NCBI GenBank assembly: GCA_003641425.1
Contig: QNAH01000001.1
Location: 1 to 33,227 of the forward strand
Source: Candidatus Zixiibacteriota bacterium
Lineage (GTDB): Bacteria; Zixibacteria; MSB-5A5; GN15; PGXB01
Length of the DNA: 33,227 bases
Direction of reading: 5' to 3'
Made by a program: the position numbers and the translations under genes. Shown here piece after piece: positions 3,403-28,209 of this stretch. Under the pieces are notes generated by a model. The model was not told the origin of the DNA, did not search any database, and saw only the letters and a list, made by a program, of their open reading frames with translations. How positions within the stretch are numbered: position 1 is the first letter of the stretch; each line of letters starts with the position of its first letter.

Positions 3403-4704
3403 CTACTTCATCAGCAGCATCTTCTTGGCTTCTTTGAAATCGCCCGTCTTGATTTCGTAGAAATATATTCCTGACCGAACCGTGTAACCATCCTCGTCGG
3501 TACCATCCCAATTGATCGTGTACTGTCCCGCCTCCTGTCTGGTATTGACCAGCCTTTTGATTTTCCGGCCGAGAGTGTTATAGATGGAAATCTCGACATC
3601 GGTTTTTGACATCAGCGAATATTTGATGCTGGTCGATGCGTTAAACGGATTCGGATAATTCTGCGACAGGATGAATTTACCGGGAAGAGTCGGCCGATTA
3701 TCATCGGGTGTATCGCTTGGTTCATGCTCATAAGAATAAACCCCGTCACCGAGTGTGGCAAACCATACCACACCCGAAACTGTGACAGCGATATCTGTGA
3801 CCGAAGCATTACTTCCGATTCCGGTGAATCGATTGAATGTCGTCCAGACAGCACCGTCGAATTGCGATATCCAGACCTGGTTCGGATTAGTCCAGCTATG
3901 GCCGACCCAGATATATCCAAGACTGTCCATCGCCACTGCAGTGACCGCTCCCGGAGCAAGACCGTCGCCGGCCTCGGTATAATCGACCCATTCCGATCCC
4001 CGGTCGAATCTATTGAGTCCGGTATTGGTGCCGAACCAGATGTAGCCTGAGGGATCCTGCATGATGACATTGACAGTATCGTCGAGCAAACCGCTGTTCG
4101 ACTCCTCGTACGTGGTCCAGTTACCGTCGAGATCGAGTTTCGAAACTCCATTACGTGTCCCAAACCATTTGTTTCCGTCGCTGTCAATCAGCGATGCCAG
4201 GATATTATTACCGGCCAGACCGCTGTCGATAGTATAATGGGCTACCGTGGTGGTGTCGGCATCATGTTTGACGACACCCGCGCCGAATGTCCCCAGCCAG
4301 AGGAAACCGGAGTCATCGACCACCATCGTCTTGATATCGACATAATCCAGATGATCTTCCTGATTAAACTGATCCCACTCCGATACACCATCGAAACTTC
4401 CAACACCGAATGTGGTCGCGAACCATAAATTACCTGCCGGATCGGAGGTTATATCATTGATGGCGTCGTTGATCAAACCATTGAAATGATTATATACGGG
4501 CCAGTCGTTACCGTCGAATTTTTGCACCCCCGCCCCGCCGCTTCCGAACCAGATATTTCCGGCTTCGTCGGCGTAAAGAGAATTTACATAATTGCTGACA
4601 AGATTTTCCAATTCGTCATACGCTGTCCAATCGGCCTGAACCAATGTGAAAAAGAGCGACAAAATCAAAACCAATATGAAAATCTTTAAGTATTTGAATT
4701 CCAT
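3403..4704 (-). CDS. Secreted beta-propeller protein (two-component-regulator-propeller / Reg_prop-like repeats) with T9SS C-terminal sorting domain
   Basis: Signal peptide MEFKYLKIFILVLILSLFFTLVQA. Repeated D..G.(I/L)WFGT..G(V/L) units. The C-terminal tail 'LSQNYPNPFNASTSIKYSL...GIYFYEIKTGDFKEAKKMLLMK' matches the Por/T9SS type-A tail pattern. Confidence 0.75.
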   Translation of the reverse strand: MEFKYLKIFILVLILSLFFTLVQADWTAYDELENLVSNYVNSLYADEAGNIWFGSGGAGVQKFDGNDWPVYNHFNGLINDAINDITSDPAGNLWFATTFGVGSFDGVSEWDQFNQEDHLDYVDIKTMVVDDSGFLWLGTFGAGVVKHDADTTTVAHYTIDSGLAGNNILASLIDSDGNKWFGTRNGVSKLDLDGNWTTYEESNSGLLDDTVNVIMQDPSGYIWFGTNTGLNRFDRGSEWVDYTEAGDGLAPGAVTAVAMDSLGYIWVGHSWTNPNQVWISQFDGAVWTTFNRFTGIGSNASVTDIAVTVSGVVWFATLGDGVYSYEHEPSDTPDDNRPTLPGKFILSQNYPNPFNASTSIKYSLMSKTDVEISIYNTLGRKIKRLVNTRQEAGQYTINWDGTDEDGYTVRSGIYFYEIKTGDFKEAKKMLLMK

Positions 4705-4985
4705 TTTTTTCTCCTTGTTTTATTATATGACGTAAAAACTAAGATAATATAGCAATAAAGTTGGCCCAAATAAATACCGGCCTTACTCGCCCTGAGATTG
4801 CTTTATAAAATGAGCGGGTGGAAAAGCCGCAATCATAACTTTTCAGCTTGCAAAAAAAGCAATCGCGTATTATCTTTAACTTATTGAGCGACAATAAAGT
4901 AATATGTCGTTAGCAATTGCCCAACGGCACAATGAAGTGTGATATTTTTTTATCGGGTCGGCAATAATGATGAGGAATTGGCGTG

Positions 4986-24614: not shown

Positions 24615-25265
24615 ATGAAACGTTTGTTAATTGTTCTGCTGGCCATGCTGATTTGTATTCCCAGCGTCTATGCCCGCAAAAAATCGAAAAAATCAGGTGT
24701 TATTAAAGACAATATTTACACCGACGCCGAGTATAATTTTACCATCAAAATTCTGGAAAACTGGGAAGCGAAACTTCAAAAACCCAAAAAGATGATTCGC
24801 CTTGCCCTGACTCAGCGGGATCACGAGATTCCGCCTGAACTGATGCAATTCCCGAGTATGGCTATGGTGCCGACTCTTAATATCCATATCGGTAAAGTGG
24901 ATATGCCGCCGGCGGTATATGTCGATTCACTGGTGAGCTTAACTTATTCTTCAGACGTCAAAAAGGAAGTGATGAAGGACCTCATGGCTCTGGAGGAAAA
25001 TGTCACTTTCGACGGGTTAAAAACTACACAAAAAGACCGGATCAAGATCGACGAAAAAGAGGCCTGCCAATGGCAGGGTTCCGTCAACTATACCAAAAAA
25101 TTGGGGATGGGCGATACCATTCCGAGGGTGTACAGTGTTGGAATAGTTGCGTTAAAAAAGGGTGATCTGATGATGACCTGTTTGATCGAGACTGAAAGCA
25201 TGTTTTTCACAGATATTTTCAAAGAGGTCCTCGAGATGGTCCATACTATCGAATGGCCGGATTAA
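24615..25265 (+). CDS. Secreted hypothetical protein
   Basis: Strong SD GAGGAGG. Signal peptide MKRLLIVLLAMLICIPSVYA. I recognise no motif. Confidence 0.7.
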   Translation: MKRLLIVLLAMLICIPSVYARKKSKKSGVIKDNIYTDAEYNFTIKILENWEAKLQKPKKMIRLALTQRDHEIPPELMQFPSMAMVPTLNIHIGKVDMPPAVYVDSLVSLTYSSDVKKEVMKDLMALEENVTFDGLKTTQKDRIKIDEKEACQWQGSVNYTKKLGMGDTIPRVYSVGIVALKKGDLMMTCLIETESMFFTDIFKEVLEMVHTIEWPD

Positions 25266-25434: not shown

Positions 25435-26706
25435 ATGAGTATTTCAACCAGAACATTGTTTCTGTTGGTCTTTTTTGCTTTGTCAAATGCGGCCGTCGCC
25501 GGCATCGATGAAGACAGCATCTTCTATAAGATTGTCCGCCCCGCCTATCCCATGACCTGGCTGGAGGCGCGTGATTCGGCCGCGGCGCTGGACGGATACC
25601 TGGCTGTGATAAGCGATCAAGCCGAACAGAAGACAATTACCGCTTTGCTGAACGGTACCGAAACAGCATGGATTGGCGGCAGCGATGTTGTTGTCGAGGG
25701 ACGCTGGCGATGGTCGAACGGCGAGACATGGATTTTCGACAATTGGATACCGGGACAGCCCGATACCGCGGCCGGAATGGATTACGCCGTCATGGATCCG
25801 GGGGGCATTTATAGCTGGCGGGCCGCTTCCGGGACCGCCGATGCTTTCGTGGTCGAGTGGGATTGCTGCCGTTCCGGATTTACCGGGAATGTCAACTGCG
25901 ATTCGCAGGGCGCCATAAATATCCTCGATATCTCCTATCTGATCAATTACCTGTATAATTCGGGACCATCGCCCTGTTGCCGTGATCTGGCAAATGTCGA
26001 TGGTGATTCCGATAATAATGTAAATCTGCTGGATGTACTAAGGATTATCAATTTTCTTTATATCAGCCATGAACCTCCATCCGAATGCGGACCGGGTGTC
26101 ATTGAGCCGTTCGATACCACAATCATTGTCGATCGTCTGGGAAAAGAATGGGATGTATCATATGGGGTACATTTCTACGGCATGGATCCGGCCAATTTCA
26201 ATTTTGGTCTGGGCGCCGGCTTTTTCCCGCCGTTTGTAAATCCCGAGTTCCTCTCGCCGGGGGATTCCGGCTACCCCGTGCCTGATGATCCCATGGGAAT
26301 ACTGGCGACGACTATCAATGGAGAAAGCCGTGCCTATAAGCTTGACGCCCTGATCGGGCACGAAGTGGTCAATGATCGATTCGACAACATCTATGTCGCT
26401 CCCGCTTACTGACCGCTTAAAAACCTGGCTGTCGTGTACAGCCGAGAGATCAATGGCGAAATATTGACCCTTGCGGCCAGCGGATGGACCTATAATTTCT
26501 CCTTTGTCCTTTATGATCATGAAACCGAGACAATGTGGCTTCCGGTAAATGTCGGCGACGGCGGCCCCAACAGTTGCGGTTGTGTAATGTGGGGCTTTGC
26601 CGGACCGTTTGCCGGACGGTTTCTTCATGCCTACCCCTCGAGCAATACCAACTGGAATATCTGGTGGCCGGAACACCCCGACACCAAGATTATGAAAACG
26701 GAATAA
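25435..26706 (+). CDS. Secreted C-type-lectin / dockerin-like / DUF3179 fusion protein containing one in-frame TGA (26410-26412), either candidate selenocysteine or a nonsense mutation
   Basis: SD AAGGGGG plus a signal peptide. C-type lectin-like region (WLEARDSAAALDGYLAVISD...WIGGSD..VEGRWRWSNGETW). Dockerin-like duplicated EF-hand (GNVNCDSQGAINILDISYLINYLY / ANVDGDSDNNVNLLDVLRIINFLY). The ORF-track pieces 25435..26412 and 26434..26706 are in the same frame. Joined, they form one DUF3179-like domain: ...INGESRAYKLDALIGHEVVNDRFDNIYVAPAY[TGA]PLKNLAVVYSREINGEILTLAASGW...VLYDHETETMW...WWPEHPDTKIM. Confidence 0.6.
26426..26444 (+). promoter_or_regulatory. SECIS-like hairpin downstream of the DUF3179 TGA
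   Basis: uGGCUGU-CGUGU-ACAGCCg is a 6-bp stem plus a closing U.G pair. The apical-loop GU lies 24-25 nt from the U of UGA, nearly the same spacing as in the SelW-like gene. Confidence 0.4.
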
Positions 26707-26830
26707 GCCAATTTTATATCCGGGGCCGGACAATACAACATATTCGGTCTCGATATTATTCTTGAATTCTGCAAAAATATTCGATCTATTTATCGTAATT
26801 ATGTTTATTGAAATCCAAAAAGAGGTTTTT

Positions 26831-27064
26831 ATGAAAATTAGTATAAAATACTGTGTTGAATGAAATTACCTGCCCCGTGCCGTCGGTCTGGCGGATGCTG
26901 TCAAAAAAAGATTTGGATTGGAATCCCGATTAATAAAAGGGGGCGGGGGCGTTTTTGAGGTCGCCTTCGATAACAAAGTCTTTTACAGCAAAAAGGACAA
27001 TCGTGGCCGTTTCCCGACCCATGAAGAGATATTCGAATTAATCGAAAAATATCAAAACACGTAA
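26831..27064 (+). CDS. SelW-like / Rdx-family selenoprotein (CxxU), 77 aa with in-frame TGA at 26861-26863
   Basis: SD AGAGG lies 5 nt upstream of the ATG. The translation is MKISIKYCVE[U]NYLPRAVGLADAVKKRFGLESRLIKGGGGVFEVAFDNKVFYSKKDNRGRFPTHEEIFELIEKYQNT. It follows the Rdx pattern (I.YC..C/U....RA...A..L...FG....LI.G.GG.FEV......++SK...GRFP...E+). It is absent from the ORF track because of the TGA. Confidence 0.85.
26876..26897 (+). promoter_or_regulatory. SECIS-like hairpin of the SelW-like gene
   Basis: The core is CCGUC-GGUCU-GGCGG (26880-26894). A lower extension with a bulged G is possible. The GGUCU apical loop resembles the E. coli fdhF SECIS loop. The first loop G is 24 nt from the U of UGA. 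Confidence 0.6.
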
Positions 27065-27271
27065 TTCGCTTAAGCATCTGTAGAATATTGGAAATTATTA
27101 ATAATACAAATGATGACAATATGTGTGCCTGCAAGCGCAGGATTAACAAAAATATGCCGGAAGAAATCAGAAATCCTCGAAATTCCACCAGCGAAAAGAC
27201 TGAGATTTTACCGCTTTTAAGCACATCTTCGTGCCGATGTGCCTGATTGCCGGCAATAACAATGGGTAGCA

Positions 27272-27886
27272 ATGTCAGAAGAAAATGGGGCATCAAAATC
27301 CGAAAAACTATCCAATCCCCAAACCTGGGTGGATGTACACGGTGATTTTCTTTTCGGATATGCTATCCTGCGATTGAAGGATACCTCTACCGCGGAAGAT
27401 GCTGTGCAGGAGACTTTTTTAGCCGCCCTGAATGCCAGGGATTCTTTCAGGGGCCAGTCCGGCGAACGGACCTGGCTCGTTTCTATCCTTAAGAACAAAA
27501 TCATCGACCATTTTCGTCGCCTCAGCCGGGAGGTCGATTTCCACAATAATGATATTGACGTAATCGATGATGATTTTATTGCATCCGGCCCGAGAGCGGG
27601 TACCTGGAAAGCCGGTCAAAGACCATCCGAGTGGGTAGTCGACGCTGCCGACCTTGCCGAACAAAAAGAATTCTGGGAATATCTGCGCAAATGCATCGAT
27701 CGGATGCCGCCGCATATCGGGATGGTCTTTATCCTGCGCGACATCGAGAATATGAAAAATGAAGATATCTGTAACGTTTTGACGGTTCAGCCGACTAATC
27801 TGAGAGTAATATTGCACCGTGCGCGAAAGCGTTTACGCCGGTGCCTTGAAAAAATATGGCTGAATACCGAAAGGAGCGAACGGTGA
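27272..27886 (+). CDS. ECF-type RNA polymerase sigma-70 factor
   Basis: Region 2 ('DAVQETFLAAL...ERTWLVSILKNKIIDHFRR') and region 4 ('ICNVLTVQPTNLRVILHRARKRLRRCL'). About 200 aa. Confidence 0.9.
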   Translation: MSEENGASKSEKLSNPQTWVDVHGDFLFGYAILRLKDTSTAEDAVQETFLAALNARDSFRGQSGERTWLVSILKNKIIDHFRRLSREVDFHNNDIDVIDDDFIASGPRAGTWKAGQRPSEWVVDAADLAEQKEFWEYLRKCIDRMPPHIGMVFILRDIENMKNEDICNVLTVQPTNLRVILHRARKRLRRCLEKIWLNTERSER

Positions 27887-28209
27887 AAAAAAGGCCGGGT
27901 ATGTCGGCAAAGGCGATGCTGATGATGTCGAAAGCGATGGGCGGTTTTATGCCTACCTGTCGCGAAGTGTCGCAGCTGACATCACGAGAGTTTGATGAAA
28001 AACTTTTGTTCCGTCAGCGGCTCGGTATCAGACTTCACCTGATTTTCTGCAAATGGTGCCGCCTTTACAGGAATCAGCTTCAATTTATAGATAATTTCCT
28101 CCGCCGATATTCGGCAGATGTCGAAAAAGCCCCGATCGGCATTGAAATCAGTCTTTCCGATGAAACCCGCGACCGTTTCAAGCGTGCCATCAAAGATAAT
28201 AGCAAATAA
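27883..28209 (+). CDS. Soluble zinc-binding (ZAS, HxxxCxxC) anti-sigma factor
   Basis: The GTG at 27883 overlaps the sigma stop (GTGA), with AAGGAG 7 nt upstream. 'C-REVSQL...' followed by 'HLIFCKWC' gives the C...H-x3-C-x2-C ZAS motif. There is no TM segment. Confidence 0.75.
   Translation: MKKRPGMSAKAMLMMSKAMGGFMPTCREVSQLTSREFDEKLLFRQRLGIRLHLIFCKWCRLYRNQLQFIDNFLRRYSADVEKAPIGIEISLSDETRDRFKRAIKDNSK

Follow-up and report, generated by a model that had tools for sequence, protein, structure and literature searches.

A SelW-like gene with an in-frame UGA and a conserved SECIS-type hairpin in a Candidatus Zixiibacteriota genome

Does the TGA at codon 11 of a short reading frame in a Candidatus Zixiibacteriota contig end translation, or does it stand for selenocysteine (Sec)? 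The frame lies on the forward strand of the 33,227-nucleotide stretch of DNA analysed here (the window, to which all positions refer unless a contig is named), and its features are collected in Table 1. We conclude with high confidence that the frame is a functional gene for a SelW-like selenoprotein and carries a SECIS of the SelB type.

Table 1 Features of the SelW-like locus in the window.
Feature	Position	Strand	Description and evidence
SelW-like / Rdx-family selenoprotein CDS	26831-27064	+	77 aa plus TAA stop (27062-27064), ATG at 26831 (sequence reading); predicted Sec is codon 11; translation, profile matches
Shine-Dalgarno-like AGAGG	26821-26825	+	5 nt before ATG; sequence reading
Cys8 codon TGT	26852-26854	+	First residue of the C-V-E-U redox motif; alignment A2, 2LJK/2FA8
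In-frame UGA, predicted to be read as selenocysteine (U11)	26861-26863	+	Conservation in orthologues and across the phylum
SECIS hairpin	26880-26894	+	CCGUC 26880-26884 with GGCGG 26890-26894; loop GGUCU 26885-26889; covariation

Read through the TGA, the frame gives a product of 77 residues, MKISIKYCVEUNYLPRAVGLADAVKKRFGLESRLIKGGGGVFEVAFDNKVFYSKKDNRGRFPTHEEIFELIEKYQNT. The initial annotation had described this product by its N-terminal segment around the TGA at codon 11 and its GGGGVFEV and GRFP segments, and had reported a Shine-Dalgarno (SD) sequence. Every one of these elements is found in the sequence, and purine-rich SD-like motifs occupy the same place in three orthologues (L024, L025, and L026).

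Because codon 11 is TGA, gene callers truncate the gene. The list of open reading frames made under translation table 11 gives only a 48-aa tail ORF (26918-27064) at this locus, and the public protein collection contains, for the same contig, a 64-aa call (P0002) that starts just past the TGA. The statement that the gene is unannotated, with no ORF listed, therefore holds for the full-length frame and fails for the locus as a whole: the gene is mis-called, by truncation, rather than wholly uncalled. With its start placed after the UGA, the public call loses the whole CxxU redox motif and strand β1, and the main value of the correction lies in annotation.

A run of seven A residues lies inside the coding sequence (26902-26908, +). 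A protein call on a 1,933-nt contig (P0004), 95% identical to the SelW-like product, can be accounted for if the run is one A shorter there; the call starts at an ATG overlapping the TGA and is later back in frame. The one-A difference is probably a homopolymer length error or a variant in the other assembly. A simple scan of positions 26600-27400 for sigma-70 promoters and terminators found none.

The read-through product is a member of the Rdx family. PF10262 (Rdx, formerly PF05169), whose gathering score is 22.6, matches the product with 62.3 bits when U is replaced by C; residues 2-72 align with profile positions 1-73 of 74, so that the match spans the TGA. TIGR02174 (CXXU_selWTH, NCBIfam) is matched with 50 bits, compared with a cut-off of 34.2, when the TGA is read as Sec or Cys. 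The best-scoring NCBIfam model is NF041051 (SelTWH_Campy), the equivalog of Campylobacter-type SelT/SelW/SelH proteins. Its match covers positions 1-69 of 70 and reaches 87.5 bits against a cut-off of 88, and the gene is therefore not assigned to this equivalog.

The nearest solved structures in a sequence search of the PDB are all Rdx proteins (2LJK, 2FA8, 3DEX, 2OJL, and 2OKA), with E values of 5e-8 to 7e-4. In the two alignments shown, those of 2LJK (MIEN1, E = 4.8e-8) and 2FA8 (Atu0228, E = 8.7e-8), the CxxC motif aligns on C8/U11. Both redox-motif positions, Cys8 and U11, are invariant in a protein alignment of 17 homologues (alignment A2). The earlier reading of the product as following the Rdx/SelW pattern, with the motif C-V-E-U, is thereby borne out.

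A single-sequence AlphaFold2 model of low confidence (pLDDT 66) places strands at residues 8-10, 32-36, and 41-46 and helices at residues 11-28 and 64-75. The order of these elements is compatible with the thioredoxin-like Rdx fold. A Foldseek search of the same model against the PDB gave no match at E <= 0.001, and membership of the Rdx family is accordingly assigned from the sequence. Since the Rdx match begins at residue 2, leaving no room for a signal peptide, the product is predicted to be cytoplasmic.

To follow the TGA across relatives, we scanned 285 genomes of the same phylum with TIGR02174. The family is present in 57 of them, and 57 of the 58 matches contain one in-frame TGA. In each of the 32 Sec-form genes that were extracted, the TGA is the CxxU position, the fourth residue of Y-C-x-x-U. 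Comparison with Cys-containing homologues places the TGA on the second Cys of CxxC in 2LJK, 2FA8, and the single Cys form of the phylum scan (L028), which has TGT at this position.

Closer relatives give the same picture. Two same-genus orthologues (59-60% identity) have exactly one in-frame TGA each, and two metagenome contigs (79% and 52% identity) have TGA at the same position. The ENA gene calls of the metagenome relatives give W at this codon, which looks like an artefact of gene calling under a code in which TGA is Trp. A sequencing error at the TGA is ruled out by the retention of the codon in 57 genomes and by the conservation of the SD, the start codon, and the ten codons upstream. 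A protein search of the genome-contig collection with the SelW-like product returned no related loci.

The initial annotation also named a hairpin downstream of the UGA, with its loop 24 nt away. This hairpin is present (Table 1); counted from the U of the UGA, the loop begins at a distance of 24 nt and its G-U falls at +26/+27. Its reality rests on comparative data, namely covariation and codon bias, and not on single-sequence folding. For the comparison, the 32 Sec-form genes were aligned without gaps from the UGA to +54 (alignment A1), where the helix joins columns 19-24 with columns 30-35. In this alignment 79.7% of the cells of the named helix pair, whereas controls with a slid 3' partner reach no more than 58%. 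Covariation scores 0.212, compared with a shuffled mean of 0.109, and none of 500 shuffles attains this value, related sequences being treated as independent.

The individual base pairs agree with this result. The pair 21-33 links two Ala codons at their synonymous third positions and is therefore free of protein-level selection; it is CG in 21 genes, GC in four, GU in two, AU in one, and UG in one, with three mismatches. Column 33 is G in 21 of the 22 sequences with C in column 21, compared with 2 of the 10 others (Fisher p = 3.6e-5, related genes counted as independent). At the pair 22-32, both bases have changed in one sequence (L036), from G-C to U-A, and the pair 24-30 is C-G in 31 of 32 sequences and U-G in one. 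The stem has 5-6 bp and contains no bulge in any of the 32 sequences. The consensus of the apex is R-G-U-Y-U; all 32 sequences have G26, at least 90% of them have U27, and A25-U29 can close a GUY triloop in most homologues.

Could the hairpin be a by-product of the conserved peptide A-x-S/G-L-A, with recoding directed by another signal or absent altogether? We consider this very unlikely. It is true that the Cys form L028 can form three of the base pairs from a similar peptide, that the 32-sequence alignment yields no consensus structure with RNAalifold, and that single-sequence folding is no better than that of shuffled sequences (z = -0.46 for 26861-26915 and +0.26 for 26840-26940). However, the constraint acts at synonymous sites, as seen in the third-position covariation and in codon choice. 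We used Fisher tests, in which related genes are counted as independent, to compare the hairpin codons with those chosen for the same amino acids in the rest of these genes. The Ser of the loop is AGU, and not UCN, in 24 of 25 cases, compared with 9 of 116 elsewhere (p = 1e-18). The Leu is YUG in all 32 genes, compared with 75 of 120 elsewhere (p = 4e-6). The codon before the loop, whose third base closes the stem, ends in C in 31 of 32 genes, compared with 140 of 394 four-fold codons elsewhere (p = 2e-12). These effects are large in size despite the treatment of related genes as independent. In addition, the UGA sites of two unrelated proteins of the genome, SelD and a DUF3179 protein, share with the SelW-like gene an N-G-U-N-U apex at +24 to +27. 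The G-U lies at +26/27 in the SelW-like gene, at +25/26 in the DUF3179 gene, and at +24/25 in the SelD gene.

Taken alone, the RNA has a different minimum free energy (MFE) structure, in which CUGCC (26870-26874) pairs with the same GGCGG. This structure has an energy of -10.4 kcal/mol, compared with -6.8 kcal/mol for the named hairpin, a difference of 3.6 kcal/mol. It is not conserved, since 51% of the cells of alignment A1 pair and the covariation is below the shuffled mean. A shifted register (columns 19-22 with columns 29-32) shows no covariation. A scan of the window at the Rfam gathering thresholds found one tRNA only. On the comparative evidence the named hairpin is a conserved fold under RNA-level constraint. 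The earlier proposal thus stands as to the hairpin itself, now backed by covariation, and falls short in that the hairpin is neither the MFE structure nor, by itself, better folded than shuffled sequences. A SECIS model for the lineage, consisting of a 5-6-bp stem, an R-G-U-Y-U apex, and a G-U at +24 to +27, could help to find further selenoproteins.

The genome contains most of the machinery for Sec. The assembly, 86.5% complete, comprises 465 contigs with a total of 2.9 Mb. A tRNA-Sec gene, corresponding to selC, is located at C264:4337-4432; RF01852 matches it at 4339-4431 with 71.8 bits, compared with a gathering score of 47, and it is called tRNA-SeC with the anticodon tca (UCA) by ARAGORN. 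Two copies of selD score above the cut-off (403 and 364 bits). One copy (C217:4819-5640, +) has a TGA at 4846, in the classical active-site position SCAG-U-ASKLGP, followed by GGCCAA-AGUUU-UUGGCC, which can also be drawn as a 7-bp hairpin (GGCCAAA-GUU-UUUGGCC). By its sequence, this copy is the third Sec-type gene of the genome. The other copy (C392:1688-2614, -) is a Cys form (GLGCACK) and shares an open frame with an upstream domain, which we take from sequence reading to be NifS/cysteine-desulfurase-like; the frame runs off the contig. This copy is an apparent NifS-SelD fusion.

A C-terminal piece at C94:7698-9150 is very probably SelB. It matches positions 140-577 of TIGR00475 with 131 bits, under the full-length cut-off, its N-terminus being lost at the contig end, and it carries the SECIS-binding domain PF09107 (SelB-wing_3, 51 bits). 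The gene selA was not found in the 86.5%-complete assembly, the only match being a 21.9-bit hit to an aminotransferase. Because both same-genus genomes have selA (483 bits), its absence is likely an assembly gap. A search of the genome for selABCD thus recovers selC and selD, selB as a fragment, and not selA. The claim that the organism uses Sec is supported by the tRNA-Sec, the SelD gene with its UGA, the SelB fragment, and the adjoining DUF3179 gene with its TGA.

With this machinery in place, it is extremely unlikely that the ribosome inserts a standard amino acid at the UGA, either Trp or Gly under a reassigned code or Cys via mis-charged tRNA-Sec, and that no selenoprotein is made. The W in the ENA calls of the two relatives would fit such decoding, and insertion of Cys at the UGA is compatible with the sequence. 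However, TGA ends 406 of the 1178 open frames of at least 300 codons in this genome (34%), which rules out genome-wide reassignment of TGA. Moreover, the genome has a canonical tRNA-Sec, SelD, and a very probable SelB fragment, and a reassigned codon would not need a conserved SelB-type hairpin.

There is next to no probability that the TGA is a true stop, in a decaying pseudogene or ahead of a downstream ORF of 48-64 aa that alone is made, as the truncated calls and the missing selA might suggest. At 50-80% protein identity, conservation extends over the SD, the start codon, and the ten codons that precede the TGA, Cys8 among them, and this excludes a pseudogene. The Rdx match begins at profile position 1 and crosses the TGA, a codon retained in nearly all homologues, and the truncated product would be without redox motif and strand β1.

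Returning to the functional selenoprotein gene, we infer Sec insertion, SelB binding, and redox chemistry from the sequence as follows. When the ribosome reaches the UGA, SelB with Sec-tRNA(Sec) would be held by the mRNA hairpin, a 5-bp stem with a pentaloop containing G-U. Selenocysteine would be inserted at the UGA, and translation would go on rather than end. The resulting 77-aa thioredoxin-like product would most likely cycle between the selenol/thiol form and a Cys8-Sec11 selenenylsulfide and serve as a thiol-disulfide oxidoreductase whose substrates would be glutathione-like or protein thiols. Together, the SelW-like, Sec-type SelD, and DUF3179 genes suggest that this uncultured lineage decodes UGA as selenocysteine, and they provide context for other in-frame TGAs of the genome.

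HemL encoded in the window shares 73-76% identity with that of three MAGs, and the one among them that bears a phylum name is Candidatus Zixiibacteriota, which fits the host lineage. Within its own taxonomic family, the SelW-like gene is confined to this genus (3 of 33 genomes), and in several other families of the same class it is found in most sampled genomes. In both same-genus genomes, it directly follows a homologue of the window gene at 24615-25265. In the window, a DUF3179 gene lies upstream of it (25435-26706, +). Read through a TGA at 26410-26412, this gene would give a product of 423 aa with Lectin_C, Dockerin_1, and DUF3179 domains, the DUF3179 match covering profile positions 4-149 of 292 only. 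The TGA is followed by the hairpin GGCUGU-CGUGU-ACAGCC. The lectin-dockerin-DUF3179 gene is absent at this position in both same-genus genomes and looks like an insertion specific to this genome. The adjacency of two selenoprotein genes would therefore also be specific to this genome.

Downstream, positions 27272-28209 (+) contain an ECF sigma factor gene (Sigma70_r2 and r4_2) overlapping an ORF for a weak zf-HC2 anti-sigma match. In the same-genus genomes the sigma/anti-sigma pair does not neighbour the SelW-like gene, so the apparent redox cluster of the window is not conserved synteny.

A 52-aa ORF lies downstream of the SelW-like gene (27088-27246, +; MEIINNTNDDNMCACK...LPLLSTSSCRCA) and has CxC motifs near both ends (C-A-C-K ... 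LPLL..SSC.C). All three genomes of the genus have an ORF of this kind, 49-52 aa in length, 23-36 nt after the SelW-like gene, and no other sampled member of the phylum has one in this place. Between the two relatives compared, the differences by codon position number 7, 9, and 20, a pattern that suggests a coding sequence. Searches of Pfam, NCBIfam, and the protein collection gave neither a family match nor a homologue for the micro-ORF. The SelW-like protein and the CxC micro-protein might form a genus-specific pair of a selenoprotein and a Cys-rich protein, with a role in redox or metal handling; we regard this as unlikely. If it is true, the CxC micro-protein would be the first defined partner of a SelW-like protein.

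How does the locus compare with known systems? The SelW-like hairpin shares the string GGUCUG with E. coli fdhF. The earlier designation of the loop as fdhF-like is apt for a small loop containing G-U and inapt in two respects: the bulged U is absent, and the loop G-U is 3 nt further from the UGA. The SECIS of E. coli fdhF has a 17-nt upper hairpin from +15 to +31, with a bulged U17 and an essential G23/U24 in the loop (PMC8659212). Both elements are in-frame hairpins of about 15-17 nt located just 3' of the UGA, with G-U in the apical loop, and the genome has a SelB winged-helix domain. The bulged U17 of fdhF is on the 5' strand, at which the SelW-like hairpin has no bulge. The SelW-like element as a whole sits 3-4 nt further downstream. 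Its G-U lies at +26/+27, compared with +23/+24 in fdhF, its stem starts 16 nt after the UGA compared with 11 nt, and in place of the GGUC tetraloop of fdhF it has a pentaloop, which can also be seen as a GUY triloop closed by R-U.

Eukaryotic Rdx proteins (selenoprotein W and MIEN1/C17orf37) resemble the product in that 2LJK is its best structure match, with CxxC on C8/U11. The order β-α-β-β-α in the pLDDT-66 model is compatible with these proteins. In contrast, eukaryotic SelW relies on a 3'-UTR SECIS and on SBP2/eEFSec, whereas the bacterial gene has an in-frame hairpin of SelB type.

The closest counterpart is the bacterial SelW-like family, which, as the initial annotation had noted, is not new. 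SelW-like proteins with CxxU have been catalogued since 2005, in the selenoproteomes of the Sargasso Sea (PMC1088965) and GOS (PMC2398784), and in marine metagenomes no bacterial selenoprotein family is more abundant. They occur in many bacterial genomes, with few Cys homologues (PMC1794560). A bacterial SECIS is recognised as a hairpin that follows the UGA directly and has a small apical loop containing G (PMC1088965). The biochemical role of the family is described as a probable redox function, from the CxxU motif. The present gene agrees with this family in its length of about 75 aa, its N-terminal CxxU, and its full-length profile match. Sec forms dominate here (57 of 58) as they do in the GOS data (427 Sec forms compared with 56 Cys forms; PMC2398784), and the SECIS comes straight after the UGA with a small apical loop containing G. 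Nothing essential differs. The host lineage, Zixibacteria, lies outside the coverage of the selenoproteome surveys (PMC1088965, PMC2398784, PMC1794560). The gene is thus a mis-annotated member of a known family that fits the family description in every respect; it leaves existing knowledge of the family unchanged, and its recognition is a repair of annotation rather than a discovery.
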